Positions 8,358-50,999 of a DNA stretch of 50,999 nucleotides are shown piece by piece. The stretch lies in assembly GCA_002269645.1 (NCBI GenBank), contig NIVC01004308.1:1-50999 (forward strand), written 5' to 3'. This stretch comes from Macrostomum lignano. Its lineage: Eukaryota. The notes below the pieces were generated by a model. The model was given only the letters and a program-made list of their open reading frames with translations, was not told where the DNA came from and searched no databases. Position 1 is the stretch's first letter. Each line of letters begins with the position of its first letter. The translations under genes were made by a program, and so were the position numbers.

Positions 8358-9830
8358 TTACAATGGTGCGTCCCGAACAATCGTGCCATCAGCTTTAGCA
8401 ATTGACATATATTCCTCTAGAAACAATACGTGGGCGTCAAGTGCCTGATTACCGGTTTTATTAATCTCTAACATATAATTAAGTCCAATATTGGCTACGT
8501 TTTCTTTCTGTGCCGTTAGATCATAAACAACCACTGGATGAATGTTTAGAAACTCTGTGGGTGTGTACTGAGGGACGGCATACGCTTCATTTTTGGCATA
8601 ATCTTGATAATATTTTATAAAATCATTAACATTATTATTTGCAATATTTAGATTAAGAGGATCTTTAACCGGATAATATTGATCATCAACCTGCAGGCGG
8701 ATATTCTGAACATTAAACTCGTTAATTGCAGCAACTGCGTTGTCTGTTGCGGTGGCTGCTTGTTCTGCTATGGCACCGGATTGAAGCCAATATAAATCCC
8801 CATTTGCTCTTTTACTCCTTCTATTTGTTATCTTAAACCAAACAAAAATATATCTCACCCGACGTTTTGATGTCAGTATTTGCCACTGGAATGAATCCTG
8901 ATTGTTATTAATGGTTCGCATAAAGTGTCTACGATTCAAATAAAATATTTCCTGATCATGCGTTAATTGATTATCGATGTGTTTTAAAAGCGGAGCTGTT
9001 ACCTCAATAGTTGGTACGACTAATTGAATTGAATCTATACGAACTGCTATATCGGTTGAAATTGAGGTTCCATAAAGTATCCTAGGCTGATATCCACCAG
9101 ATATTTGCAACTGTATCCCAAATTTTAATCCTTTCCATACCCGATTTGGTGAGAAGAACCCAAATAGCGGGAAGATTGAAAAGTCCTGCTCATATGCTGT
9201 TGCTGTGGTTAAAACCGCGACTGGGAATTTATTCTGACGAGCTATAAAACCTGTATTAATATCTTTTGTATTAGTCATGGTGGTTACAACTGGAACTATG
9301 TTTGTATTAAGGTAAACAATTAGCGCTGCAGTATCTGCACCGGCTGCGTTTTGTACATTAGGTAAAACTACTGCTTGCCCGTTACCTTTATCCGGCATCC
9401 ACCCAACATTATCACCAACTTGTTTTGATAAATAAGTATAATTTAAATGTTTCAAAACTCCATTAATCTCTGCGGGGTTTGATGATGTCTCAACCTCAGC
9501 ACCATTAACAGTTAGTTGAGCTTGGGAAAAACATTTATAAAACCAATCATTTTCAATTATTATTCCGGATCGATCTGCGATATCTCCGCCTGCAAGAGCA
9601 GTTCCATCATTTCTAGTATACAACCATCTAACGCGGAAAAACGCATTTTTCATATCCAATATAGTGTTGGTTGCGCCGATGTCAAAAGTTACCGTTCCAG
9701 TAGTAAAGTTATTTGAATTATCACTTGTTGGTAGGGTATAATTTAAATCGTTTGCTCTGACCTCATTAATATACTGTCGGTGCTTTTTGAAATGAAATTT
9801 ATCACTCCACATAGTTTTTGTTTCAGCCAT
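8358..9830 (-). CDS. Major capsid protein (double jelly-roll)
   Basis: 490 aa, adjacent to ATPase; AQLTVNGAEVE, RLQVDDQYYP, HPVVVYDLT motifs typical of Polinton MCP. Confidence 0.85.
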   Translation of the reverse strand: MAETKTMWSDKFHFKKHRQYINEVRANDLNYTLPTSDNSNNFTTGTVTFDIGATNTILDMKNAFFRVRWLYTRNDGTALAGGDIADRSGIIIENDWFYKCFSQAQLTVNGAEVETSSNPAEINGVLKHLNYTYLSKQVGDNVGWMPDKGNGQAVVLPNVQNAAGADTAALIVYLNTNIVPVVTTMTNTKDINTGFIARQNKFPVAVLTTATAYEQDFSIFPLFGFFSPNRVWKGLKFGIQLQISGGYQPRILYGTSISTDIAVRIDSIQLVVPTIEVTAPLLKHIDNQLTHDQEIFYLNRRHFMRTINNNQDSFQWQILTSKRRVRYIFVWFKITNRRSKRANGDLYWLQSGAIAEQAATATDNAVAAINEFNVQNIRLQVDDQYYPVKDPLNLNIANNNVNDFIKYYQDYAKNEAYAVPQYTPTEFLNIHPVVVYDLTAQKENVANIGLNYMLEINKTGNQALDAHVLFLEEYMSIAKADGTIVRDAPL

Positions 9831-9864
9831 TTTTTTAAGTTAAAAAAGTTTTTTATGTTAAAAA

Positions 9865-10535
9865 ATGAGTCAATTTATGGACGTTGATGGAGAGTTAGCG
9901 ATTTATAAAGAGAAGCAAAGATATTCTGATTTTGTTAGAAATTTACAAAAAAGAAAGTTAGGAATACAATTAGCGGGTGAAAGATTTGCTGCTCCTTTTG
10001 TTAATCCTATTACTGGGAAAATTAGTGAACTAGAAAAAACAGATAAAGATCTTCTGGAAAAAATTGCTAAAAATACTGAGCCAAAAGAGGATGAAATTTT
10101 GGATGAGCCGCCTGCTTATGATGTTGATCAAGCTCAATTGAGAGTTGCAGAGATTAGGGCTGCAGAAAGGGGTGGAGTTGATGAATATCCGAGAGCTGCA
10201 CCAACTAGTATTGCTGTGACAGATTTAGGTAATAATAATTATCGAATTGGTGGAGTTGATAAAAATCGAAATGAACTATATAGAGAATTGGGCGGAGCAT
10301 ATAATATTGTTATGAACCCTAGGGTAAAATTTAACCCTGAATTATATACTAGGGATGAATTAGTAAGTGCAAAAATTTTTTATGATGAGTTGGGAGTAAG
10401 AGCTGCTAAAAATACCAGCTTGTATAAAAGATTGTTAATTCTATAAATAACAAACCAGCTGTTGGAGAAGGATTTAAAACTCCTAGAAAACTTGTTTTAG
10501 CTGCCGCGAAAGCTGCTGGACATACTGGTGTTTAA
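9865..10535 (+). CDS. Conserved Polinton protein (putative core/PZ-like); -1 frameshift near 10440
   Basis: Intact 221-aa version in copy 2 (42210..42875); divergent from MCP; GxG-F putative protease site. Confidence 0.6.
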
Positions 10536-10562
10536 TTAATTGTTAAATTTATTTTTTATAAA

Positions 10563-11152
10563 ATGGAAACTAATAAGATTTGTACTAAGTGTAAACAAGA
10601 AAAACCGATGACGAAAGAATTTTATTTTTGGAGAAATGATTCAAAAAAATTTAGAAATGATTGTCGATCTTGTCATAATACCTCATCTGCTATTTGGATA
10701 AAAAACAATAAAGATAAATGGAATGAATATAGAAAAAATAAGTATCACACTGATGATAATTACAAACATATTGTTTTAATTAGAAATAGAATAAATTGGG
10801 CGTTGAAAAATTTTAATGACAAGGACTATATCTCATATCTTGGTTGCACAAAAGAATTCTTTTTTGATTGGTTAAATTTCACAAGAAATTATTATGTATC
10901 AAAAGATTATACTGGAAAGTTAGATATTGATCATTTCATTCCCGCTTCTTCGTTTAGTTACAAAGATGAAGATCAGATGAAAAAGTCTGAACATTGGACA
11001 AATAAAAGATACTTAACTAGCGTAGATAATAACTATAAAAAAGTTAAACAACCAACCATTGAAGAGTTTGCAAAACAATTGGTGCTTTCATGTATTTTTA
11101 AGGCTATTAAAAATGAGCAACCGAACGAAGTTCGCGTTCCTTCGGAACGATC
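10563..11152 (+). CDS. Free-standing HNH (NCLDV-type) endonuclease; ORF runs on to 11303 in this copy because of a 29-nt insert
   Basis: CTKC...CRSC zinc motif, YLGC, LDIDHFIP, HWTN...DNN HNH core. Confidence 0.8.
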
Positions 11153-12752
11153 GGGCGGAGCCGCGTGCCTTAGGCACGATCAAATAGTGTTTGAAGGAGG
11201 ATTGTTAGATGTTCAAAAAGGATTAACAAGCTTACCACCAATCTTTACTACTGGAAGGTATACTGGGGAACTACATTTACCATCAATGAACTTCACAGGT
11301 TAACCCGTGGCCTGAGTGAGGAAGGCAATGTCCTTGCTAGTCACTATTTGTGGCGACATCTCCAAATTGCGTGAAACCCGTCATACTGCTTCAAGTACCA
11401 CTTCAATTGAGAAATCTTTTGAAGGAACAGAGGTAACTCCTCTTCCCAAAGGTAAAAAGCTTGAAGACACGGTGGCAATGCGCAGCCAAGCTCCTAAGTA
11501 TTTTAAATATAAGGAGAAGGTTCAGAGAGCAGACGGAGATGGGCGGTAATTATCGCCGCTTAAGGTGTGCTCCAGCCTCTTTCGAAAGATTGAGGGTAAA
11601 CTACCCGGCACTCGCTTAGATTTGAGATTAAATCCTGATGACACCCCAAAAGCCGATTCAATTCCCATAAATGGAATTGATTGGTTAGCATACTATCATG
11701 ACTTAGCATACAGAGATGCTGATAAGAACACACCCGAGGAAGCATTAAGATTAAAACATGAAGCCGATCAAAAAATGATTCAAGGATTAGATAACTTGCA
11801 GGGATTATCGGTAGGTCAAAAATTAACTAGGTGGATGGTTAAAAAGATTCTACAATCTAAAGTTAAATTTGGTTTGGGAATTAATTATAATCAACATGGA
11901 AATAATTGTGTTGAGTGTTTGTTGTTAAGTGGCGGTGGGTTAAGTTCTGATGAGGCAAAGATTCTTCATAAAGAATATCGAAAACCTAAATTTTATAGAA
12001 AAATCATGAACTTCAAAAAGAACGAAATTTGGTATGCTGATTTAATGTCTATGCCGATCGATAAAGGATATAAATATATTTTAACCATATTAGATGGTTT
12101 TACTCGATACGCGTGGGCTGTTCCTTTGAAATCCAAAAAAGGAGAGGATGTTGCTGCTGCTTTTAGAAGTCTTGGAGAAAAAAGCGAAAGATTGTGTGTT
12201 GACGAAGGAAAAGAATTTTACAATCCTCATATGTATAAATTGTATCATTTTGAAAAAGGAAAAGAAAGGATGAAGGGCGCGAATGGGGAGTATATTAATA
12301 AAATTTATTCTATTTATGGAGAGAGTAAAAACGCATTAATAGAAAGATTTAATCGAACTTTAGGTAAGAAATTGTGGTTTCAGTTTAGTCTTAATGGAAA
12401 CCAAAAATGGGTAAAAATATTACCAGACGTTGTAAAAGATTATAACAATTCATATCATTCGGCCATAAAGATGGCTCCTCAACAAGCTTATAACAAACCT
12501 GAAAATGTTAAGGTTACTTTTGGAAAATTTGAAAAAAATAAAAAGAAATCTTTTAAGGTTGGTGATTCTGTTTATATCTATAAATGGAAAGATAAGTTTG
12601 AAAAAGGAAGAAAAGGATATTGGAAGATAAGTGAGAAATTTACTATCAGTAAAGTTTTAAATACCAATCCTACAACCTATATAATTGCTGATAAGGACGG
12701 TGAAGAAATATTGGGTTCGTTTTATGAGAACCAACTAATATCAGCGAACTAA
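11113..12752 (+). CDS. Phospholipase A2 (parvovirus-type) fused to rve integrase; exon 1 11113..11300 (frameshift at ~11160), exon 2 11604..12752
   Basis: Spliced ELHLPSMNFTG|PGTRL restores the PLA2 Ca-loop; HDLAY and D catalytic residues; integrase W.ADL, D-EGKEF, IERFNRTL (DDE). Confidence 0.9.
11301..11603 (+). ncRNA. Group I self-splicing intron, subgroup IC1-like, 303 nt, no internal homing ORF
   Basis: P1 with U-G at 5' splice site (CAGGT/GCCTG), P2, P2.1, P3 CATCTCC(11357-63)/GGAGATG(11535-41), P/Q elements AATTGCGTGAAA/AATGCGCAGC, P5abc, P6, P7 GAGAGCA(11525-31)/TGCTCC(11568-73), P8, P9 with GAAA loop, P9.0; removal restores reading frame. Confidence 0.93.
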
Positions 12753-12762
12753 GTTCGAACAA

Positions 12763-12987
12763 TTACTTGAGACAACATGGTAGTAAATTTTTTATAACAA
12801 ACAAAAACAATATTATTACAATAATTGTTACTAATATTATTATTGACATTTGTTCAACTGTTATCAAACTTAAATTTTCATTAAGTTCATTAATTGGAAC
12901 ATTTCCGATGTAGGAATAGTTTACCTTCATTTTTTTATATATATTTTTCACAATAAATGTCGTTTCTGTTATAGAATAATAGTTCAT
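12763..12987 (-). CDS. Small single-TM viral protein (74 aa)
   Basis: Hydrophobic C-terminal helix; identical in copy 2 (39788..40012). Confidence 0.6.
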   Translation of the reverse strand: MNYYSITETTFIVKNIYKKMKVNYSYIGNVPINELNENLSLITVEQMSIIILVTIIVIILFLFVIKNLLPCCLK

Positions 12988-13003
12988 TTTTTAAATATTT
13001 TTT

Positions 13004-13318
13004 TCACATAAAAATTTCACTTTCATTCTCTGAATCGCTGGTTTCATATGAACTATTTGTTGATTCGGAATCTGTTGATCTAACCTCCCAATCATCCGAA
13101 TTTAAATAATCTCCAAGTTGAAATATTAACTCACCCTCTTGTTCTAAATCAAACATCTCATCTAGCTCTAATGGATAAAGTTTTAGGTCGTGCTTGTCGT
13201 CATATTTTAAATAAACTTCATCAATTATTCCATTCAAAATATGTTGTTTTATTATCTCTGCATTTTTAGCAACAGTCTCAAAAGTATCACTAACAGAAAA
13301 GGTGTAAACTCGGGTCAT
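13004..13318 (-). CDS. Acidic hypothetical viral protein (104 aa), terminal gene
   Basis: Near-identical in copy 2 (39457..39771); AAAAATG start. Confidence 0.65.
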   Translation of the reverse strand: MTRVYTFSVSDTFETVAKNAEIIKQHILNGIIDEVYLKYDDKHDLKLYPLELDEMFDLEQEGELIFQLGDYLNSDDWEVRSTDSESTNSSYETSDSENESEIFM

Positions 13319-13372
13319 TTTTAGTAACAGAAAAAGACCCTTCGCGCCTGCGGCGCGGGCAAGGGGTTATAG

Positions 13373-13643
13373 AGTAGTAGTATAGAAAAAGACGCTTCTA
13401 GATCAGACCTTATTTTAATGGCCGTTTGTAAGGTCTTAAGAGGGGGGACGCGAGGGGGGTGTTGGGGAGTGTTTGGAAGTGTTTGGAAGTGATTTTTATT
13501 GTTAGGGGTGATTATGGGTGATTAGATGTATTAATGGTGTTTAGATGTGTTTTTTTATTTACCCCCCGTGTCCCCCCTCTAGACCCTTAAAACGGTCATT
13601 AAAAAAGTGCTCTGGGTCTAGAAGCGTCTTTTTATATACTACT
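13373..13643. repeat. Terminal region of copy 1 (TIR-side end) with internal inverted copy of the terminus
   Basis: AGTAGTAGTATAGAAAAAGACGCTTCTAGA at 13373 and TCTAGAAGCGTCTTTTTATATACTACT ending 13643; same segment at 39132..39402. Confidence 0.85.
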
Positions 13644-14029: not shown

Positions 14030-15154
14030 AACCTCCTTGGCGGCGCGCTGTTCGGCCTTGCGCGCGGTTTTCCTCTGTGCTGCTTGCTGACAGCCTGCGG
14101 CGCCACCGGCTGCTACCTGATGTCGCGCCACTTCGGCAAGCGCCTGGTTGAGCGGGCTTTTCACAGGCGCCTGGAGCCGCTGCGCCGGCGAGTGCAGCAA
14201 AATCGGCGCTCCCTGTTCGCTATGCTGCTGTCCCTGCGCCTGTTCCCCATGTCGCCCAACTGGTTTCTCAACATGGCCTCGCCGCTACTGGGCGTACCGC
14301 TGCTCCACTTCTTCCCCTCCGTGTTTCTCGGTGAGAATTTTATTGCTGCATTCATTGAATGTAATCGAGTCATGCAGTGTCTAGAGCACTCCAGTCATGC
14401 AGTGTCTAGAGCACTCCAGTCATGCAGTGTCTAGAGCACTCCAGTCATGCAGTGTCTAGAGCACTCCAGTCATGCAGTGTCTAGAGCACTCCAGTCATGC
14501 AGTGTCTAGAGCACTCCAGTCATGCAGTGTCTAGAGCACTCCAGTCATGCAGTGTCTAGAGCACTCCAGTCATGCAGTGTCTAGAGCACTCCAGTCCTTC
14601 AGTGTCTAGAGCACTCCAGTCATTCAGTGTCTAGAGCACTCCAGTCATGCAGTGTCTAGAGCACTCCAGTCATGCAGTGTCTAGAGCACTCCAGTCCTTC
14701 AGTGTCTAGAGCACTCCAGTCATTCAGTGTCTAGAGCACTCCAGTCATGCAGTGTCTAGAGCACTCCAGTCATGCAGTGTCTAGAGCACTCCAATATTTA
14801 CAGTAAAATCAGTAAATGGGTCGTGGAAAGATTTCCACTACTGTGGAATGCGCTTATTAAGTCACTTATTAAACATGCATTTCGCAGTATTGATAGCAAT
14901 ATATACGAGTACAAATTACAAATCTCCCTTTGGCAGGCCTAATGCCATACAATTTCATCACGGTCGAAGCCGGCTGCATGCTCAGCAGTTTAACCTCAAT
15001 CAGCGACCTGTTCTCAACGGGCACCATGTTGAAACTCACCGTCTTGTCCGGCCTTGTGGCCGCGTTTGTCTTGCTAAAAAGGCGTTACGCCTCCCCTGAA
15101 ACCTTGAGGCAGTCGGAGTACAGCGACGGCCTCCTAAATGGAAAGGGGCTATGA
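14030..15154 (+). CDS. TMEM41A: TMEM41A-like (VTT/DedA family) gene, last two exons 14030..14330 and 14937..15154
   Basis: NLLGGALFG...GATGCYLMS...LRLFPMSPNWFLNMASPLLGVP...G|LMPYNFI matches TMEM41A; AG/GT sites with matching phase 1. Confidence 0.85.
14368..14792. repeat. 25-bp minisatellite (CCAGTCATGCAGTGTCTAGAGCACT, ~17 copies) in TMEM41A intron
   Basis: Direct tandem units with near-palindromic AGTGTCTAGAGCACT core. Confidence 0.92.
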
Positions 15155-39131: not shown

Positions 39132-39456
39132 AGTAGTATAGAAAAAGACGCTTCTAGACCCAGAGCACTTTTTTAATGACCGTTTTAAGGGTCTAGAGGG
39201 GGGACACGGGGGGTAAATAAAAAAACACATCTAAACACCCTTAACACATCTAATCACCCATAATCGCCCCTGACAATAAAAATCACTTCCCAACACTTCC
39301 AAACACTCCCCAACACCCCCCTCGCGTCCCCCCTCTTAAGACCTTACAAACGGCCATTAAAATAAGGTCTGATCTAGAAGCGTCTTTTTCTATACTACTA
39401 CTCTATAACCCCTTGCCCGCGCCGCAGGCGCGAAGGGTCTTTTTCTGTTACTAAAA

Positions 39457-39771
39457 ATGACCCGAGTTTACACCTTTTCTGTTAGTGATACTTTTGAGAC
39501 TGTTGCTAAAAATGCAGAGATAATAAAACAACATATTTTGAATGGAATAATTGATGAAGTTTATTTAAAATATGACGACAAGCACGACCTAAAACTTTAT
39601 CCATTAGAGCTAGATGAGATGTATGATTTAGAACAAGAGGGTGAGTTAATATTTCAACTTGGAGATTATTTAAATTCGGATGATTGGGAGGTTAGATCAA
39701 CAGATTCCGAATCAACAAATAGTTCATATGAAACCAGCGATTCAGAGAATGAAAGTGAAATTTTTATGTGA
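39457..39771 (+). CDS. Acidic terminal viral protein (copy 2)
   Basis: Homologue of 13004..13318. Confidence 0.65.
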   Translation: MTRVYTFSVSDTFETVAKNAEIIKQHILNGIIDEVYLKYDDKHDLKLYPLELDEMYDLEQEGELIFQLGDYLNSDDWEVRSTDSESTNSSYETSDSENESEIFM

Positions 39772-39787
39772 AAAAAATATTTAAAAA

Positions 39788-40012
39788 ATGAACTATTATT
39801 CTATAACAGAAACGACATTTATTGTGAAAAATATATATAAAAAAATGAAGGTAAATTACTCCTACATCGGAAATGTGCCGATTAATGAACTTAATGAAAA
39901 TTTAAGTTTGATAACAGTTGAACAAATGTCAATAATAATATTAGTAACAATAATAGTAATAATATTGTTTTTGTTTGTAATAAAAAATTTACTACCATGT
40001 TGTCTTAAGTAA
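39788..40012 (+). CDS. Small single-TM viral protein (copy 2)
   Basis: Homologue of 12763..12987. Confidence 0.6.
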   Translation: MNYYSITETTFIVKNIYKKMKVNYSYIGNVPINELNENLSLITVEQMSIIILVTIIVIILFLFVIKNLLPCCLK

Positions 40013-40022
40013 CTGTTTGAAC

Positions 40023-41633
40023 TTAGTTCGCAGACATTATCTGGTTCTCATAAAAAGAACCCAATATTTCTTCACCGTCCTTATCAGCAATTATATAGGT
40101 TGTAGGATTGGTATTTAAAACTTTACTGATAGTAAATTTCTCACTTATCTTCCAATATCCTTTTCTTCCTTTTTCAAACTTATCTTTCCATTTATAGATA
40201 TAAACAGAATCACCAACCTTAAAAGATTTCTTTTTATTTTTTTCAAATTTTCCAAAAGTAACTTTAACGTTTTCAGGATTGTTATAAGCTTGTTGAGGAG
40301 TCATCTTTATCGCCGAATGATATGAATTGTTATAATCTTTCACTACGTCTGGTAATATTTTTACCCACTTTTGGTTACCATTAAGACTAAACTGAAACCA
40401 TAATTTCTTACCTAAAGTTCTATTAAATCTTTCTATTAATGCGTTTTTACTCTCTCCATAAATAGAATAAATTTTATTAATATACTCCCCATTCGCGTCT
40501 TTTTTCCTTTCTTGTCCTTTTTCAAAATGATATAATTTATACATATGAGGATTGTAAAATTCTTTTCCTTCGTCAACACACAAACGTTCGCTTTTTTCTC
40601 CAAGACTTCTAAAAGCAGCAGCAACATCCTCTCCTTTTTTGGATTTCAAAGGAACAGCCCACGCGTATCGAGTAAAACCATCTAATATGGTTAAGATATA
40701 TTTATATCCTCTTTCGTTCGGCATCGACATTAAATCAGCATACCAAATTTCATTCTTTTTGAAGTTCATGATTTTTCTATAAAATTTCGGTTTTCGATAT
40801 TCTTTATGAAGAATCTTTGCCTCATCAGAACTTAACCCACCACCACTTAACAACAAACACTCAACACAATTATTTCCATGTTGATTATAATTAATTCCCA
40901 AACCAAATTTAACTTTAGACTGCAAGATCTTTTTAACCATCCACCTAGTTAATTTTTGACCTACCGATAATCCCTGCAAGTTATCTAATCCTTGAATCAT
41001 TTTTTGATCGGCTTCATGTTTTAATCTTAATGCTTCCTCGGGCGGGTTCTTGTCAGCATCTCTATATGCTAAGTCGTGATAGTATGCTAACCAATCAATC
41101 CCATTTATTGGAATTGAATCAGATTTTGGAGTATTGTCAGGATTTAATCTCAAATCTAAGCGAGTGCCGGGTAGTTTACCCTCAATCTTTCGAAAGAGGC
41201 TGGAGCACACCTTAAGCGGCGATAATTACCGCCCATCTCCGTCTGCTCTCTGAACCTTCTCCTTATATTTAAAATACTTAGGAGCTTGGCTGCGCATTGC
41301 CACCGTGTCTTCAAGCTTTTTACCTTTGGGAAGAGGAGTTACCTCTGTTCCTTCAAAAGATTTCTCAATTGAAGTGGTACTTGAAGCTGTATGACGGGTT
41401 TCACGCAATTTGGAGATGTCGCCACAAATAGTGACTAGCAAGGACATTGCCTTCCTCACTCAGGCCACGGGTTAACCTGTGAAGTTCATTGATGGTAGGT
41501 GTAGCTCACCCGTATACCTCCCAGTAGTAAATATTGGTGGTAAGCTTGTTAATCCTTTTTGAACATCTAAAAATCCTCCTTCAAATACTAATTGATCGAA
41601 CCTGCGGTTCGCGAACTTCGTTCGGTTGCTCAT
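40023..41633 (-). CDS. PLA2-rve integrase fusion (copy 2); exon 1 41633-41475, exon 2 41171-40023, open after splicing
   Basis: AAAAATG MSNRTKF...NFTG | PGTRL...HDLAY...DDE integrase. Confidence 0.9.
41172..41474 (-). ncRNA. Group I intron (IC1-like), copy 2, 303 nt
   Basis: Reverse complement differs from 11301..11603 at one position (CATACTGC vs CATACAGC) by manual comparison. Confidence 0.93.
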
Positions 41634-42182
41634 TTTTAATAGCCTTAAAAATACATGAAAGCACCAATTGTTTCGCAAATTCTTCAATTGTTGGTTGTTT
41701 AACTTTTTTATAGTTATTATCTACGCTAGTTAAGTATCTTTTATTTCTCCAATTTTCAGACTTTTTAATCTGATCATCGTCTTTGTAACTAAATGAAGAA
41801 GCGGGGATGAAATGATCAATATCTAACTTTCCAGTATAATCTTTTGATACATAATAATTTCTTGTGAAATTTAACCAATCAAAAAAGAATTCTTTTGTGC
41901 AACCAAGATATGAGATATAGTCCTTGTCATTAAAATTTTTCAACGCCCAATTTATTCTATTTCTAATTAAAACAATATGTTTGTAATTATCATCAGTGTG
42001 ATACTTATTTTTTCTATATTCATTCCATTTATCTTTATTGTTTTTATCCAAATAGCAGATGAGGTATTATGACAAGATCGACAATCATTTCTAAATTTTT
42101 TTGAATCATTTCTCCAAAAATAAAATTCTTTCGTCATCGGTTTTTCTTGTTTACACTTAGTACAAATCTTATTAGTTTCCAT
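41581..42182 (-). CDS. HNH endonuclease (copy 2), one frameshift near 42045
   Basis: Split over ORFs 41967..42182 and 41581..42051. Confidence 0.78.
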
Positions 42183-42209
42183 TTTATAAAAAATAAATTT
42201 AACAATTAA

Positions 42210-42875
42210 TTAAACACCAGTATGTCCAGCAGCTTTCGCAGCAGCTAAAACAAGTTTTCGTGGTGTTTTAAATCCATCACCAACAGCTGGTTTGTTATTT
42301 ATAGAATTAACAATCCTTTTATACAAGCTGGTATTTTTAACAGCTCCTCCTAACTCATCATAAAAAATTCTAGCACTTATTAATTCATCCCTAGTATATA
42401 AATCAGGGTTAAACTTTACCCTAGGGTTCATAACAATATTATATGCTCCACCCAATTCTCTATATAGTTCATTTCGATTTTTATCAACTCCACCAATTCG
42501 ATAATTATTATTACCTAAATCTGTCGCAGCAATACTAGCTGGTACTCTTGGATATTGTTCCCGATCGCCCCGCTCTGCACGTCTAATCTCTGCAATTCTC
42601 AATTGTGCTTGATCAACATCATAAGCAGGCGGCTCATCCAAAATTTCATCCTCTTTTGGCTCCGTATTTTTAGCAATTTTTTCCAGAAGATCTTTATCTG
42701 TTTTTTCTAGTTCACTAATTTTCCCAGTAATAGGATTAACAAAAGGAGCAGCAAATCTTTCACCCGCTAATTGTATTCCTAACTTTCTTTTTTGTAAATT
42801 TCTAACAAAATCAGAATATCTTTGCTTCTCTTTATAAATCGCTAACTCTCCATCAACGTCCATAAATTGACTCAT
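42210..42875 (-). CDS. Conserved Polinton core/PZ-like protein (copy 2, 221 aa)
   Basis: Homologue of 9865..10535. Confidence 0.6.
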   Translation of the reverse strand: MSQFMDVDGELAIYKEKQRYSDFVRNLQKRKLGIQLAGERFAAPFVNPITGKISELEKTDKDLLEKIAKNTEPKEDEILDEPPAYDVDQAQLRIAEIRRAERGDREQYPRVPASIAATDLGNNNYRIGGVDKNRNELYRELGGAYNIVMNPRVKFNPDLYTRDELISARIFYDELGGAVKNTSLYKRIVNSINNKPAVGDGFKTPRKLVLAAAKAAGHTGV

Positions 42876-42909
42876 TTTTTAACATAAAAAACTTTTTTAA
42901 CTTAAAAAA

Positions 42910-44382
42910 ATGGCTGAAACAAAAACTATGTGGAGTGATAAATTTCATTTCAAAAAGCACCGACAGTATATTAATGAGGTCAGAGCAAGAGATTTAAATT
43001 ATACCCTACCAACAAGTGATAATTCAAATAACTTTACTACTGGAACGGTAACTTTTGACATCGGCGCAACCAACACTATATTGGATATGAAAAATGCGTT
43101 TTTCCGCGTTAGATGGTTGTATACTAGAAATGATGGAACTGCTCTTGCAGCCGGAGATATCGCAGATCGATCCAGAATAATAATAGAAAATGATTGGTTT
43201 TATAAATGTTTTTCCCAAGCTCAACTAACTGTTAATGGTGCTGAGGTTGAGACATCATCAAACCCCGCAGAGATTAATGGAGTTTTGAAACATTTAAATT
43301 ATACTTATTTATCAAAACAAGTTGGTGATAATGTTGGGTGGATGCCGGATAAAGGTAACGGGCAAGCAGTAGTTTTCCCTAATGTACAAAACGCAGCCGG
43401 TGCAGATACTGCAGCGCTAATTGTTTACCTTAATACAAACATAGTTCCAGTTGTAACCACTATGACTAATACAAAAGATATTAATACTGGTTTTATAGAT
43501 CGTCAGAATAAATTCCCAGTCGCGGTTTTAACCACAGCAACAGCATATGAGCAGGACTTTTCAATCTTTCCACTATTTGGGTTTTTCTCACCAAATCGGG
43601 TATGGAAAGGATTAAAATTTGGGATACAGTTGCAAATATCTGGTGGATATCAGCCTAGGATACTTTATGGAACCTCAATTTCAACCGATATAGCAGTTCG
43701 TATAGATTCAATTCAATTAGTCGTACCAACTATTGAGGTAACAGCCCCACTTTTAAAACACATCGATAATCAGTTAACGCATGATCAGGAAATATTTTAT
43801 TTGAATCGTCGACATTTTATGCGAACCATTAATAATAACCAGGATTCATTCCAGTGGCAAATACTGACATCAAAACGTCGGGTGAGATATATTTTTGTTT
43901 GGTTTAAGATAACAAATAGAAGGAGTAAAAGAGCAAATGGGGATTTATATTGGCTTCAATCCGGTGCCATAGCAGAACAAGCAGCCACCGCAACAGACAA
44001 TGCGGCTGCAGCTATTAACGAGTTTAATGTTCAGAATATCCGCCTGCAGGTTGATGATCAATATTATCCGGTTAAAGACCCCCTAAATTTAAATATAGCA
44101 AATAATAATGTTAATGATTTTATAAAATATTATCAAGATTATGCTAAAAATGAAGCGTATGCCGTCCCTCAGTACACACCCACAGAGTTTCTAAACATTC
44201 ATCCAGTGGTTGTTTATGATCTAACGGCACAGAAAGAAAACGTAGCCAATATTGGACTTAATTATATGTTAGAGATTAATAAAACCGGTAATCAGGCACT
44301 TGACGCCCACGTATTGTTTCTAGAGGAATATATGTCAATTGCTAAAGCTGATGGCACGATTGTTCGGGACGCCCCGCTGTAA
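42910..44382 (+). CDS. Major capsid protein (copy 2)
   Basis: Near-identical to 8358..9830. Confidence 0.85.
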   Translation: MAETKTMWSDKFHFKKHRQYINEVRARDLNYTLPTSDNSNNFTTGTVTFDIGATNTILDMKNAFFRVRWLYTRNDGTALAAGDIADRSRIIIENDWFYKCFSQAQLTVNGAEVETSSNPAEINGVLKHLNYTYLSKQVGDNVGWMPDKGNGQAVVFPNVQNAAGADTAALIVYLNTNIVPVVTTMTNTKDINTGFIDRQNKFPVAVLTTATAYEQDFSIFPLFGFFSPNRVWKGLKFGIQLQISGGYQPRILYGTSISTDIAVRIDSIQLVVPTIEVTAPLLKHIDNQLTHDQEIFYLNRRHFMRTINNNQDSFQWQILTSKRRVRYIFVWFKITNRRSKRANGDLYWLQSGAIAEQAATATDNAAAAINEFNVQNIRLQVDDQYYPVKDPLNLNIANNNVNDFIKYYQDYAKNEAYAVPQYTPTEFLNIHPVVVYDLTAQKENVANIGLNYMLEINKTGNQALDAHVLFLEEYMSIAKADGTIVRDAPL

Positions 44383-44431
44383 GCGGCGCAGGTCTCCGAC
44401 CGTCGCGCCTATTTAAATTATTTCTTTAAAA

Positions 44432-45190
44432 ATGGTAAAGCAAAACACGATAAGATATTTCCAAATGATCCTTTTCTTTGTTTAGTAATCGGAGGATCAG
44501 GTAAAGGAAAAACACACTTTGTTTACGATTTATTAACAACAGATGGAATGTTAGACTATAATAATTTAATAATTTATACTAATAAACCTAGAATAAAATA
44601 TTATGAATTTCTTAAACATGGATTAAAAAACAAATTAAAAAAAGATGTCTTGTTTAGAATGTTAAGAGCATATGAGCAATATGAGGATGATGACGAACCG
44701 CGATTTAATCTAGCAGACATTGAGGATTTATGTAAAACAATGGCACAACAGCCAGAAAACATCACCGATCGCGCCCCAACTGTTAGAGTATCAACCCGAT
44801 TAGCCTATGATCAAATTCCAAAACATGATAAAACACTAATTATTTTTGATGATTGTATTAATGACGGTGATCAAGAATTGCAAAAGGAAATTTTTGTTAG
44901 TGGTAGAGGAGATGGAATCGGAGCTTTTTATCTAACACAGTCTTTTAGAGAATTAGAATCGATTATAAAAAAGAATGCAAGTTGTTGTGTAATGTTTGAT
45001 TTAGATAATTATGATTTACAAAATATTCACGCGAGATTTAATCCCGGATTGGATGCAAAACCATTTAAAAGTATGTGTAAAAAAATTTGGGATGATAGCC
45101 AATACAAACATATTTATATCAATCCGAGGTTAGAAAGGAAAAATCGAATTTAAAAGATTTATAAAAGAAGACGATGAGGAAGAAGAATAA
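44432..45190 (+). CDS. A32 packaging ATPase (copy 2), frameshifts near both ends
   Basis: GGSGKGKT, IIFDDC; lacks the 30-nt insert of copy 1. Confidence 0.88.
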
Positions 45191-45204
45191 TTCCCACTAT
45201 AAAA

Positions 45205-45990
45205 ATGGCTACAAATTTAAATACTATAAAACAATTGGTAGATCGAACTAATTCAAAATTTAGTACAACATTACAGTTTATAATGACAACCAGCGAGCAA
45301 CGGATTCAATTGCGCGATCCATTACAACTTGATCAAAGCCTAAGTTATCAAATAGGTTTAATACTATTTTCGGTTTTCAACATGCCTCAATTAATTAATG
45401 CAACAAATAATCAATTTAGATATTCTAAAGATTCCGGAGCCAATTGGACAACATTTAGCGTTAACCCAGGAGCGTATAGCTATACTGATTTGAATGCTTA
45501 TATAGAAGGAGAATTAACAACTAATGGTGATTGGGTAGCAGGAGCAATTGTTATAGGTGTTGATTTACCGTCTGGCAGATTCACACTATCACTAGGATCC
45601 GGATATCAGGTTGATTTCACAATTGCAAATTCACTCAGAACCATACTTGGATTTAATTCCCGAATAGTTACCACATCAAGCACCGGTGATACAGTTGGAA
45701 ATATAGAGGGTGGAGTAAATACAATTAATATAACAACCGACATTTCAAACGGTGGTTATATAACAGACGATAACGGAGTTTTGGTTCAACGTGGAATTAT
45801 TTATTCAATCCCATTTCTTGCTGTTCCAATTGGAGAGAAAATGATTGTATCACCTCAAACCCCAATATATTACCCATTAAATCAATATAATGTTCAATCA
45901 ATTTATATTAGGATTGTAGATGAAAGCGATAGATTAATAAGTTTTGGTGGGCAATCAATAACAATAATTTTACGTATAAAACAGGTTTGA
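45205..45990 (+). CDS. Minor capsid protein (copy 2)
   Basis: Homologue of 6621..7406. Confidence 0.85.
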   Translation: MATNLNTIKQLVDRTNSKFSTTLQFIMTTSEQRIQLRDPLQLDQSLSYQIGLILFSVFNMPQLINATNNQFRYSKDSGANWTTFSVNPGAYSYTDLNAYIEGELTTNGDWVAGAIVIGVDLPSGRFTLSLGSGYQVDFTIANSLRTILGFNSRIVTTSSTGDTVGNIEGGVNTINITTDISNGGYITDDNGVLVQRGIIYSIPFLAVPIGEKMIVSPQTPIYYPLNQYNVQSIYIRIVDESDRLISFGGQSITIILRIKQV

Positions 45991-46198
45991 TCGAACCTTT
46001 GGTGTCGTAAAAATGGGTAATAATAATAATAATAATAATTAATAAAAAAACAATCAGAAAAAGTTAAAAAAGCTGAAGATAATTACGAACTAGAACTAGC
46101 AAAATTAAGGCAGTTACAAGCTGATAAAATAAGAAAGGAATTGTTAAAACCCACACCTACGAAACTAACTAAAACCAAGAGTTTTTCAGGAACATAAA

Positions 46199-46660
46199 AT
46201 GACCATGACGTGGGATGATTTTAAACAAAGATATGGAACGGACACAACAAGCAATATCGAATTAACAAATTGGGCGAGGCAGTTAAAAATAAAACCATTC
46301 AGATGTGTTATGCGAGATGAGATAAAAGACTTACCAAATATGGATGTTTCATTGTTAATATTGAAACAACAAAAGAAAATGGTGTTCATTGGTCAGCAGT
46401 TTATTCAAAACCAAAACTTGTTTATTTTTTTGATTCATACGCGCTTCCTCCGTTACAGGAAATAAAAGATAAATTTAATCATACTAAAAATCGTTTATGT
46501 GGAGATCATCACGAACAATTTCAAACATTTGATAAAAGTTATTGCGGGCAAGCGCGTTGTATTTTTTATATAAAATTAATAACTCGAAGGAAACCCGAAG
46601 ATTTAGTATCATGCAAAGCATGCGTGCCGATGGCACGATTTTAGACTCTATAAAATAGAC
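46199..46660 (+). CDS. Adenain-like protease (copy 2), frameshifted at sites different from copy 1
   Basis: VHWSAV, YFFDSY, YCGQ in shifting frames. Confidence 0.8.
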
Positions 46661-46668
46661 AGTAAAAA

Positions 46669-48715
46669 ATGTTATTTTCTGGAACACCCTCATGGAACGG
46701 AACAACAAGTAGTGGTGGTGGTGGCACATCTGGTGGAATAAGTGTTACATTTGGAGATAATCGATATATTAATGAAGATGAAGGTTATAAAAAAACTGAA
46801 ATTGATAATAAATTAAATTTAAAAAGAAATGTTGCAGATTCCTATACTAAAACTCAAATAGATGATTCACTAAATCTGAAACGGAACGTAGCCGATTCCT
46901 ATACCAAAACCGAAGTTGATAATTCATTAAATTTAAAACGCAATACAGCCGATTCTATACCAAAACCGAAGTTGATAATTCATTAAATTTGAAACGGAAC
47001 GTAGCCGATTCTTATACAAAAACCGAAGTTGATAATTCATTAAATTTGAAACGGAACGTAGCCGATTCTTATACCAAAACCGAAGTTGATAATGGATTAA
47101 ATTTAAAAAGAGATGTAACTGATTCTTATTCTCGAACTGATTCTGATTCACGTTATGTTCAAACCACCGCAACCGGAAACCTAGATATGAGCAACAACCG
47201 AATTATAAATGTTTCAATTACAACTAGTGATTCAGTGGTTGATAAGAACTATGTCGATAATCAAGTTGCCACTCGTAGTGGTAATATTAATATGAATAAT
47301 TTTAAATTAACAAATTTATTATTTGGAACAGAGAACGCAGACTCGATAACTCTAGGCCAAGTAAACGAGCGAGCTAATGCAACCGACGCCGATATTTTTA
47401 CCACGCCGCTTACATCAAATACTTCAAATCCTGATGTTGTTCTTACAGCATCTGAAAATGGCAACACAGCTTTTCGAGTTGGAGATGGAAGCCTTGCGAC
47501 ACAATGGTCACCAAATACCGGAACCACAACCAATATGGAAATTCAATTTGAATTTTTAGGTTATAATAGAAGAATATTTGAATTAAGAATTACAGGCAGT
47601 GAAACAATTGAGATACCCTCGGGGTGGTCGGTTCGCGCAAAAAATGTTGCTACCGATTCATGGACGACATTAACTACGTCGGGATCACCAGTTCAAGCAA
47701 CATCATTTGCTCTATCTAATTTAACGACTAATTTTTGGAAATATTATAGCGTATTCTTCCCAACTGGTGGTACCGGTACACAACCTATCGAGGTTCGTCA
47801 AATACAATTATTTGAACACCGTGTTGAAATTCAAGATCTTAATTGGCCAACTCAAATACTTTCTGCAGTTCCGCGAGCGTACGTAGATCAGCTAGCTACT
47901 CCAACATCAAATGGTAGAATGTCTGGAAGCGATAAAAATAAATTGGATGGAATACCTGCTATTGATGCGGCCTTGTTCGAACCAGTAATTTGCAATTGGT
48001 CTGGATATCAAAATCCAACAACCGCCGGAGATATATATCCAGTCGGTTCTTTAATTGGTGACGCTTCTTATATCGATTATCAAAATGGAGCTAGAATTAC
48101 TCGTGAAACCGCAGGTGTAAGTGGGGCTTTACAATTTAATTTCACACATTTTCAAAATATATCTGCGTCTTTCTTTTCCGAGTTGCTAATTCTACAGGAG
48201 ATGGTGCAGATGCGGTTTGGTTTTATGCATATTGTCACGAACGTCCAACATCGGAATTTGGAACTGGATTATCAACCGACGCCGGGCTGATAGTGTTTGC
48301 TAGTGAGTGGACTGATAGGTTTGGAGTTGTTTGGAGTAATAAAAAATCAGACGGATCTACGGTTCGTAACGATGTTAGTAGTGATGCGGATCAAACTGTA
48401 GCCTATGCTAATATTGATAACGGCGATTGGCATTTATTTGAAGTTAATATTTTAAATCAAAGGGTTTGGTACCGATTACAGTCATACAATGTTGCTGGTG
48501 ATTCTTTTACCCTCATTGGACAGAACGTTTTCACATATGATAGTGGAACTTGGGGAACTTTAGATAAATCTGGAACCCTTATGGGTTTTGGTGCTCGAAC
48601 TGGTGGAGCGGATGCTGCACATTTTATTCGTGGTGCAGTTGTATGTGGTAGTACGTCGTTTGGTTATGTTTTTCCCTCTACTGCTTATTTGGAAAAACCT
48701 CCTACTCAAATATAA
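46669..48715 (+). CDS. Fibre/receptor-binding protein (copy 2), frameshifted
   Basis: Split over ORFs 46669..46986, 46989..48290, 48293..48715. Confidence 0.7.
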
Positions 48716-49058
48716 AATATTTATATATAAAATATTTCTATATAAAATGGCTTTTAGTAGAACTCCATCGATGCGGCAAAATAATGTTATTATTCCTATT
48801 CCTAAACAAGAATCAAATATAAAAACATTCAAATCTCATACCAAATTTTTATTTAGTACTGTAAATGTTCAGGATAATAAGAAGCTTCAAGAATTAATTA
48901 AGTTATTAAAAAATCATATTATACTTCAAGAGTTTTGGAAAATAGGATTTAAATGGGAGAAAAAAGAAAGAATAACTCCAATACAATACCTATTGAGCTC
49001 GGGACAAATCCCCAAAGAGCGCGGGAATTCATTTTGGTGCTATTAAAAATAGACGAGA

Positions 49059-49697
49059 ATGTCGGTATCTGAAGCAGATAAATGGGAACGCGACCGGTTC
49101 AACCAACGTAAAGGCCAGATGTTAAGTAATGTTGATCGTATTAACTATGATTATGATTTATATGCTAAAAAAGTAAGAAGAGTTTCAAACCATATAAGAA
49201 ATATGGACTTTTTCAATATTGGATTTGGAAGCTTATCAATGTTATGTGTAATCGTTTTAGGTATTTTACAATCTATTCCAACTCTTAATTTATCTCAATT
49301 ATTTTTAGGTATTTCAATTGGCTCAATATCAGGTTTTGAATTGATCAGGAACTTATCAATACTTTTAGCAATTAAATTATATCTTAAAAAAAGAAAGGAA
49401 AAATATAAATCTTTAAGAGATGTTGCAAAACAATATAAAAATCAATTATATTTATATGTGCAAAAAATATTGGATGACGGAGAGATAACGATTCATGAAT
49501 TATCAACCGCGGTTGAATTATATGAAAAATATTTAAAAGATAGAAATAGAATTTTAGATGTTGAAACTTTTACCGATATGGAATTAAAAGAGTTGAGACT
49601 CGATAAACCCAAAGCTCCACCGATAGAAACATTAGGTATTTACGAACCTGAAACTATTGCTACTGGGGCACAAAGCCCGCGGTCAGGAAGTGCGTAG
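49059..49697 (+). CDS. GasderminX-like 2-TM protein (copy 2, 212 aa)
   Basis: Homologue of 2746..3573. Confidence 0.55.
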   Translation: MSVSEADKWERDRFNQRKGQMLSNVDRINYDYDLYAKKVRRVSNHIRNMDFFNIGFGSLSMLCVIVLGILQSIPTLNLSQLFLGISIGSISGFELIRNLSILLAIKLYLKKRKEKYKSLRDVAKQYKNQLYLYVQKILDDGEITIHELSTAVELYEKYLKDRNRILDVETFTDMELKELRLDKPKAPPIETLGIYEPETIATGAQSPRSGSA

Positions 49698-50194
49698 AAC
49701 TTCAGGTTGTTTAGTTTTTCTAATGCATATGTTATATATTCTTCCCAAAGTGGTAACTCTCTTCTGATCCTAGGTTTAAATTTTTTATCAATACATAAAA
49801 ATTCCAATGACTTTTTCAATAACATTTCGTTAGGTATGTTACCTATCCTTATAAACTTTGTATTCTCTCGAATAAGAAAATTGAAATAATATCCAACTAA
49901 AATTAAAATCCTTTCAGAGTCTTTCGAACTTAATCCCTTTCCTTTATTTAAATGGAAAAAGTTATTATATAAATAAACATTATTTCCGGGAATTAAAATT
50001 GGATCAGAAATGTCTCTTGTAAGATTTCTTAAAATTGTGTTTTTAAAATAGTAATATGAGTTTTCAATCTTTTTTGTTTTTTCAAATTGATATATTTTAG
50101 AACATGAATAACACATATGATATATATCTCCGTTTGCTGTTTGCCCTCTGTGCATAGTCACATTACATTTATTACAAACATAAATGTCTTTCAT
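49640..50194 (-). CDS. Zinc-ribbon hypothetical protein (copy 2)
   Basis: Homologue of 2441..2992. Confidence 0.65.
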   Translation of the reverse strand: MKDIYVCNKCNVTMHRGQTANGDIYHMCYSCSKIYQFEKTKKIENSYYYFKNTILRNLTRDISDPILIPGNNVYLYNNFFHLNKGKGLSSKDSERILILVGYYFNFLIRENTKFIRIGNIPNEMLLKKSLEFLCIDKKFKPRIRRELPLWEEYITYALEKLNNLKFYALPDRGLCAPVAIVSGS

Positions 50195-50221
50195 TTTTTT
50201 TGTTATTTTTTTAGATTAAAA

Positions 50222-50554
50222 ATGGAGAGCTGGTTCAAAACCGATTCTAATGTGATTAATTATCTCACACCCAATATGTTGGAGAATAAAGAATATAATA
50301 TTATATGTTTGAGACAGGTTAAATTTATTGGGCTTCAATCAATATTTTTACAATTAGATGGGCAAAAAATTTTATGTCTAAGCGGAGATGATGTTAAAAA
50401 TTTTCCTGTTTTAGTTATTAATAAACCTAAAGCGTTTGTTATGAAATACTGCAACGAGGGTGGATTGCAATTTAAACTAAAACAAACAAATAATAAAAAG
50501 AGTGATAGGACTGTAAAATTGGCGGCTGTTTGGGAGGATGACGACGAAGACTAA
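50222..50554 (+). CDS. Hypothetical viral protein (copy 2)
   Basis: Homologue of 2082..2414. Confidence 0.65.
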   Translation: MESWFKTDSNVINYLTPNMLENKEYNIICLRQVKFIGLQSIFLQLDGQKILCLSGDDVKNFPVLVINKPKAFVMKYCNEGGLQFKLKQTNNKKSDRTVKLAAVWEDDDED

Positions 50555-50569
50555 ATTTTTTATAAGAAA

Positions 50570-50923
50570 ATGGATACGATAAAAATCCTTATCACTAAAG
50601 AGCGTGAACTTAATGATATTAATAAAAAAATAAATATAATTATATCTCAGAAATATCATGAGTATGGGGACGATATGTTTCCCATCCGATATGAGATAGA
50701 TAAAAGAAAACGTTTTTTAAGACAAGATATTGTTTATGCTGAAATAGTAATTGAAATTGAAATAGATAGATTGGTTAGAAAAATAAAAAAACTTAGGAAA
50801 AAAATAAAGGATTGTTTAAGTTACCCTGCCGACTGTGAGGATAATTGGTGCTCAATAATATATGAAATTGAAGTTAATGATTTGCTCAAACAATTACATG
50901 CTTATTTTTTACAGACCCGATAA
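50570..50923 (+). CDS. Hypothetical basic viral protein (copy 2)
   Basis: Homologue of 1773..2066. Confidence 0.6.
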   Translation: MDTIKILITKERELNDINKKINIIISQKYHEYGDDMFPIRYEIDKRKRFLRQDIVYAEIVIEIEIDRLVRKIKKLRKKIKDCLSYPADCEDNWCSIIYEIEVNDLLKQLHAYFLQTR

Positions 50924-50999
50924 GTAATTTTCTGTTAATCTCTTCCAGTTATTCAAGACTTTCCTTATTTAATTTTTTAAGTTCTTTTGGAAATGTTGA
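50902..50999 (-). CDS. C-terminal tail of pPolB (copy 2), runs out of window
   Basis: Reverse complement of copy-1 PolB end (STFPKELKKLN...KLLIG). Confidence 0.8.

Follow-up and report, generated by a model that had tools for sequence, protein, structure and literature searches.

The window, a stretch of 50,999 nt forming one complete contig of a 764-Mb assembly, carries an AT-rich element in two inverted copies, which were 96–97% identical and spanned approximately positions 1–13643 and 39132–50999 in a self-BLAST comparison. Copy 1 (1–13643, no strand assigned), delimited with the use of ORFs, self-BLAST, Pfam and the terminus and cut by the contig start, contains the C-terminal part of pPolB, a fibre-like ORF, a protease, minor and major capsid genes, an A32-type ATPase, an endonuclease, a PLA2–integrase gene and an AGTAGT end; copy 2 (39132–50999, inverted, no strand assigned) is cut by the contig end. 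Pfam matches were obtained for the rve integrase and the Pox_A32 ATPase; the pPolB, capsid, protease and fibre labels, for which Pfam gave no match, are presumptive and come from motifs and gene order. The element is a Polinton/Maverick (adintovirus-like) integrated in an animal nuclear genome. A search found 86 Wnt-family matches in the host assembly and none in any of the 14 control genomes, which marks the host as an animal, and several contigs (e.g., C506, C952, C393 and C67) hold both Wnt matches and copies of the element. Individual Wnt exons lay on two to four contigs each; hence the assembly is redundant and the copy counts reported here overstate the number of independent insertions.

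The AGTAGT terminus was present in both window copies and in 10 of the 11 other copies examined, and the opposite end was not reached in any of them. All 12 copies with an A-ending intron (see below) and a visible end, i.e., ten others and the two in the window, had distinct flanks, and target-site duplications were unreadable, chiefly because the copies run into contig ends. Neither of the two window copies has an intact protease frame. An internal inverted repeat of approximately 85 bp lies at the end of the element (13376–13643 and 39132–39400), and the terminus could fold back. The fibre-like ORF (3903–5951, reverse strand, 682 aa) consists in part of 19-residue repeats, whose number is unequal between the copies. 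The context TAT(T)AAAATG precedes four element ORFs per copy (window positions 10557, 11105, 7413 and 3892, and the copy-2 equivalents); it was matched seven times per copy, three times before short frames, and not at all in 25 kb of host DNA, and is possibly an element-specific promoter or start signal. The host DNA between the copies includes a VTT-domain exon (14030–14329), which we take to be of the TMEM41 type and which lies amid tandem repeats approximately 400 bp from the end of copy 1.

The PLA2–integrase gene is split. Exon 1 (11113–11300, forward strand) encodes the N-terminal PLA2 part and ends at the first Gly of the G-P-G loop, and exon 2 (11604–12752, forward strand) encodes the remainder of PLA2 with its His-Asp motif, a linker and the DDE integrase. 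Exon 2 is a single frame of 382 aa in which PLA2, KFGLG...LSGGGL and the rve integrase follow one another, in line with the fusion given in the preliminary description of this locus; the integrase residues D146, D200 and E247 were invariant among 34 aligned sequences. With the Phospholip_A2_4 profile (cut-off 23.9), an intron-free allele scored 31.5 bits over profile positions 2–72, compared with 16.1 bits over positions 21–72 for the split frame, and this difference in score and coverage shows that the intron cuts the G-P-G loop of PLA2.

The start proposed for exon 1 of copy 1 did not hold, as a reading from 11113 meets a TAG at 11185, 24 codons on. Exon 1 instead continues the frame of the endonuclease ORF upstream, the joint reading of 246 aa running to the TAA at 11301. 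Copy 1 is broken or mis-assembled between 11113 and 11185, possibly through indel errors of long reads; exon 1 of the sister copies is mostly 42–63 codons long. In copy 2, on the reverse strand, exon 1 (41475–41633) has 53 codons in frame from its own ATG, so the 53-aa peptide predicted earlier for the unspliced RNA was correct for this copy. It is followed by an intron of 303 nt that also ends in A (41172–41474) and by a PLA2–integrase exon 2 with an open frame (40023–41171).

The segment between the exons had been read as a ribozyme, and a narrow Rfam covariance scan bore this out: RF00028 matched positions 11291–11594 with 62.1 bits (cut-off 50, E 2.7e-15). The fast scan of the whole window gave no Rfam matches, the intron being missed by the fast filter. 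In three intron-free sister alleles of the same family (family A; L092–L094), exon 1 passes directly into exon 2 where 11300 and 11604 would lie, and therefore the intron is 11301–11603 (forward strand), 303 nt, ORF-less and with A as the last base. The splice junction put forward previously was thus right, the intron-free alleles joining the same two codon positions. G11594 and the Gs lying 4–5 nt into exon 2 were considered as alternative 3' ends and rejected, the boundary at 11603 being fixed by the empty alleles.

The expected parts of a group I intron could be assigned. An internal guide sequence (11310–11314, forward strand) would form a P1 of five base pairs in which U.G marks the 5' splice site; all five pairs are present in the window copies and most alleles, and in a set of alleles with a different insertion (the IE-like alleles described below) one exon/guide pair changes jointly from A-U to G-C. 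The bases just upstream of the guide can pair, in register, with four of the first five bases of exon 2 (P10). The RF00028 alignment places the catalytic core R-P3-P8-S, in which a variant P7 retains the G-C pair that binds guanosine, at 11519–11575 and the P9 hairpin with a GAAA loop at 11576–11595 (both forward strand), and P3, P4, P7 and P9 are intact. Judged by covariance and by its empty alleles, the feature is a real group I intron, a known kind of ribozyme.

Both window introns open with a TAA in frame with exon 1, as had been pointed out, but this is not a family trait: among 92 de-duplicated family-A introns, the first codon was TAA in 65, TAG in one and a Tyr codon in 26, and a stop was the first codon in none of the 26 introns of a second family, B. 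Every intron type does have an in-frame stop near its start, within eight codons in all copies except one degraded one. By the logic of the sequence, the claim that the full PLA2–integrase needs removal of the intron accordingly stands for the intron-bearing copies, with their in-frame stops.

Searches across the genome placed the window intron in a wider set of insertions. All 28 scored loci of a genome search with RF00028 belonged to the sister family B, the protein of which is approximately 60% identical to that of family A and is interrupted by a homologous intron at the same junction. The family-B intron is 836–895 nt long, has a terminal G in all 29 matches and contains an ORF for an Eco47II-like PD-(D/E)XK nuclease (31 bits, cut-off 25.9), which is absent from the 303-nt intron of the window. 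P7 differs between the families at three pairs and P4 at one, with both sides changed and pairing kept. Intron-free copies were found in both families: the three named above, among the 40 best-scored family-A matches, and 19 family-B matches. All 19 of the latter and L094 have C at the position of the splice-site U, and L092 and L093 keep U; the C-bearing alleles may resist homing or splicing.

In 21 matches, a third insertion, whose core is of another kind, begins at the same 5' position. By its motifs it is provisionally labelled "IE-like", as other introns are "IC-like". It gave no match in an Rfam scan of five loci and 30.4 bits with RF00028, below the cut-off, in a narrow scan. The insertion at L089:1690–2025 and its relatives combine the 5' site of the window intron and P2.1/P5-type periphery with a different catalytic core, which suggests that the IE-like intron arose by a core swap. 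Its first ten bases can be paired by eye with exon-2 codons peculiar to those alleles, and splicing at the most suitable 3' site with a final G would shorten the PLA2 loop by two residues. Over all intron types there were approximately 150 pattern matches in the (redundant) assembly, and family A was represented by 125 intron-bearing matches and three intron-free ones. Intron-bearing and empty alleles thus coexist at one site, as is characteristic of a mobile intron, and the three intron types at that site, one of them with a nuclease ORF, would fit a homing hot spot.

A free-standing endonuclease VII/HNH-type ORF lies directly upstream of exon 1 (10563–11112, forward strand; phrog_1035, E 1.5e-8). 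Such an ORF was seen beside most family-A copies and at none of the examined family-B loci, and in L001, L019 and L129 its frame enters PLA2 exon 1. It was present at 48 of the 67 A-ending loci, at 19 of the 20 G-ending ones, at 11 of the 15 IE-like ones and at all three without an intron. The free-standing nuclease does not track the presence of the intron, as it would in collaborative homing.

Contigs from four runs, presumably of RNA, gave no joint of 11300 to 11604 over window positions 10400–12900. On a family-B locus, four runs yielded one joint across the intron (X3), which was rejected as a spliced product because it has the sequence of the family-B allele that lacks the intron. As such contigs drop rare forms and may include DNA, both outcomes are neutral with regard to splicing.

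The terminal guanosine (omega-G) is a textbook requirement for group I introns; the window intron lacks it. A terminal G is normally required for the second splicing step (PMC3984707). The A ending marks a variant rather than a separate kind, the G-ending alleles being otherwise the same intron. With exact patterns, the last base was A in 80 of 104 family-A matches and G in the remaining 24. On a tree of the introns built with the last base removed, A and G ends were interspersed, A-ending introns stood on both deep branches, and eight A/G changes were needed, at least five of them forced by well-supported branches. Nine rows with shifted boundaries or degraded sequence (L109, three IC_T, three ICheg_T and two degraded family-A rows) were excluded from the tree and from the selection and core counts. 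In a set of 47 distinct A-ending introns, variation was seen at 17 of 98 positions in the core and at 67 of 205 outside it (p = 0.006), and the R element was invariant. The PLA2 part of exon 2 gave a pN/pS of 0.07 in A-ending and 0.10 in G-ending copies, and exon 1 gave 0.28 and 0.27, respectively. Shared codon variants private to A-ending copies were synonymous in 11 and non-synonymous in seven cases in exon 2 (p = 1.4e-4), and in six and six cases in exon 1 (p = 0.045). These values point to purifying selection on the core of the A-ending introns and on the PLA2 exons around them; given the mixture of A and G ends across the tree, the signal could also have been imported by recombination from G-ending or intron-free copies. 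An open exon-2 frame, present in 44 of the 66 copies that end in A and 14 of the 20 that end in G, does not separate the two.

These data bear on the reading, in our judgement unlikely, that the A-ending intron is dead or mis-splices and that such copies are non-autonomous for PLA2–integrase, depending for their mobility on G-ending, IE-like or intron-free copies acting in trans, which alone would splice or have no need to. Potential helpers of all three kinds occur in family A (24 G-ending matches, 21 IE-like matches and three intron-free copies), and the mosaic of A and G ends on the tree as well as the textbook role of the terminal G would suit such a scheme. It is at odds with the A-ending copies being the majority form, with their conserved core and with private PLA2 variants that are mostly synonymous. 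Two further introns ending in A speak against it as well. One interrupts an RPB1 gene on a giant-virus contig (L277, see below). The other is the 23S intron Cbu.L1917 of Coxiella burnetii, the last base of which is reportedly likewise A. Cbu.L1917 is spliced (PMC4990558); it is a single bacterial rRNA intron, whereas here A and G ends segregate among approximately 100 copies in a protein gene. A possible compensation was seen in the base triplet after the intron, which was CCC in 61 of 66 A-ending and CCG in 18 of 20 G-ending copies: CCC after A-ending introns adds one P10 pair. This association is only a hint, because adjacent bases are inherited together.

In a further reading, intron-bearing copies would make integrase by a bypass that damages or drops the PLA2 loop and keeps the integrase frame, through a start at 11775, ligation at G11594, or removal by the spliceosome of a segment between the GT at 11299 and an AG downstream. 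The internal ATG named as a caveat in the preliminary description does exist (11775–11777, forward strand) and lies within an A-run that precedes it in 123 of 123 alleles; the Met, however, is also a conserved residue of the PLA2 helix in homologues, the A-run includes a Lys codon, and the TAT(T)AAAATG context is absent there. G11594 is in frame and, 9 nt upstream of the intron end, falls inside the 10-nt range known from IStrons, the alternative 3' sites of which all end in G and lie within 10 nt (PMC13521648), but it is paired in P9. A donor-like GT at 11299 and in-frame AGs at 11619, 11652 and 11688 are also available. All these routes would leave the strong purifying selection on both PLA2 exons unexplained, and we regard them as quite improbable.

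The fusion itself is not special to the intron. A homologue search returned 451 proteins, and among the best 120 of these, which were analysed, the C-terminal PLA2 part was found in 88, with both PLA2 parts in one unbroken ORF in 63 of the 88. Among 89 viral and metagenome loci, 30 had the C-terminal part and 16 had both parts, of which 15 were contiguous and one was a mis-assigned match; no intron-sized gap was seen. The PLA2–integrase fusion is therefore common in databases and usually intron-free elsewhere. Cleavage of the fusion by the viral protease, which had also been proposed, finds partial support in the sequence. The linker motif L-S-G-G-G (11925–11939, forward strand) is a candidate adenain-type site; it fits the adenain consensus in 118 of 123 alleles in this genome but in only one of 41 distant homologues with a definable linker, and the protease frame in the window is broken. 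Cleavage at the linker is thus possible but would not be general. Exon 1 (window 11190–11215) and its homologues show a Gly-Gly before a conserved D-(I/V)-Q, and several homologues start at that Asp; the Gly-Gly may be an N-terminal maturation site that is better conserved than the linker site.

The anatomy given in the preliminary description was largely right, and the regulatory story attached to it was not supported. It held that the ribozyme had been domesticated as a regulated gate between the integrated and the infectious states of the element. Nearly all family-A copies bear some intron at this site, and a terminal A would plausibly slow splicing, as such a gate would have it. However, splicing turns on PLA2 and integrase together, so a single splice event leaves no choice between entry and integration. 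Both families also include copies that lack an intron and have open frames, most homologues have the fusion uninterrupted, the site has been taken by three different introns, and the TAA is not conserved. Among the known Rfam families, none except RF00028, and thus no riboswitch aptamer, scored above the cut-off in 11100–11800, in or beside the intron. We consider a regulated switch very improbable.

Altogether, the results are best explained by a selfish mobile group I intron lodged in the PLA2 loop codons of a nuclear Polinton fusion gene, which would self-splice, probably despite its terminal A; we put the probability of this reading at roughly 60%, from comparison of sequences. The intron lineage would be related to giant-virus introns and would have spread among Polinton copies by nuclease-driven homing and recombination, into the most conserved codons of PLA2, with the nuclease ORF being lost in family A. 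In the proposed reaction, exogenous G would attack at the U.G pair of position 11300, and P9.0 and P10 would guide the joining of the exons at 11603, the A replacing omega-G, probably at a slower rate. Any limit on PLA2–integrase output would then be a side effect and not a regulated switch.

A relationship with giant-virus introns is suggested by matches outside this genome. Searches of viral contigs with the P7 variant of the window intron gave seven matches, five of them in giant-virus RPB1 genes; the window protein, P0009 and the P9 motif, used as queries against viral contigs, gave no matches. The RPB1 introns end in G in three cases (L275, L276 and L278) and in A in one (L277), the end being ambiguous in L274. 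In L277, the group I intron with the same P7 variant lies after the codons for NADFDGD, and it would represent a second natural case of a terminal A, in an essential viral gene. At the level of protein sequences only, the distant homologue P0131, from a cluster whose representative shares 47% identity with the window protein, has translated core motifs of a group I intron immediately ahead of the Pro-Gly-Thr of the same site, and P0003, P0042 and P0124 read through the 3' end of the window intron.

The kind of ribozyme is known, and its setting is new to the literature searched, with an A-ending majority form. Group I introns are known from protist polinton-like viruses (PLVs), giant viruses and animal mitochondria. 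According to a review, nuclear group I introns are restricted to rRNA genes of microbial eukaryotes (PMC3679873), and a 2025 census lists animal group I introns only in placozoans, corals and sponges, mostly in mitochondria (PMC11835236). Our search, which extended mostly to papers outside subscription and to main texts, listed no group I intron from an animal Polinton or from any protein gene of an animal nucleus.

The nearest known system is that of cryptophyte and other protist polinton-like viruses (PMC12220804), in which RF00028 introns of approximately 300–380 nt likewise sit in a protein gene of a Polinton-like integrated element. As reported there, the hosts are protists only and the target is a short gene upstream of the MCP gene, whereas the present introns have an animal host and interrupt the PLA2 loop of a PLA2–integrase fusion, their ends are fixed by empty alleles and most of them end in A. 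In the polr2a and polr2b genes of Bodo saltans virus (PMC5871332), nuclease-bearing and ORF-less introns of one lineage likewise occupy conserved motifs of viral genes. That virus is a cytoplasmic giant virus with HNH and GIY-YIG nucleases, and its splicing was confirmed by RT-PCR; the element described here is integrated in the nucleus, the ORF is of the PD-(D/E)XK type and splicing is predicted from sequence. A parvovirus-like PLA2 in an animal Polinton, together with rve, a packaging ATPase and an adenain-like protease, has been described as PLA2X of adintoviruses/Polintons (PMC8502044), as a separate virion gene with a pX-like tail and, in the accessible text, with neither an intron nor an integrase fusion. 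IStrons (PMC13521648) similarly tie a group I intron to a mobile element, and their 3' site choice is shaped by omega-G and the 3' exon; there the whole element is the intron, whereas here the intron is a passenger in the element's own gene.

With approximately 150 matches, a count inflated by redundancy, in one animal assembly and in the protein gene of a nuclear element, where three intron types stand beside empty alleles, it becomes possible to test whether protein-coding transcripts in an animal nucleus can undergo group I splicing. Since A- and G-ending alleles of the same intron occur side by side, the cost of a natural A-for-G exchange at the 3' splice site can be tested as well. We tentatively suggest, as a possibility clearly less probable than its negation, that the Polintons of animal nuclei serve as a reservoir for active, homing group I ribozymes within protein-coding genes, and that the commonest form found here splices with a terminal A with the help of a stronger P10, its slow second step throttling PLA2–integrase output and tempering germ-line spread. 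Dense accumulation of such introns was encountered on one further viral contig (L273), where seven group I intron matches lie back to back in 2.3 kb.
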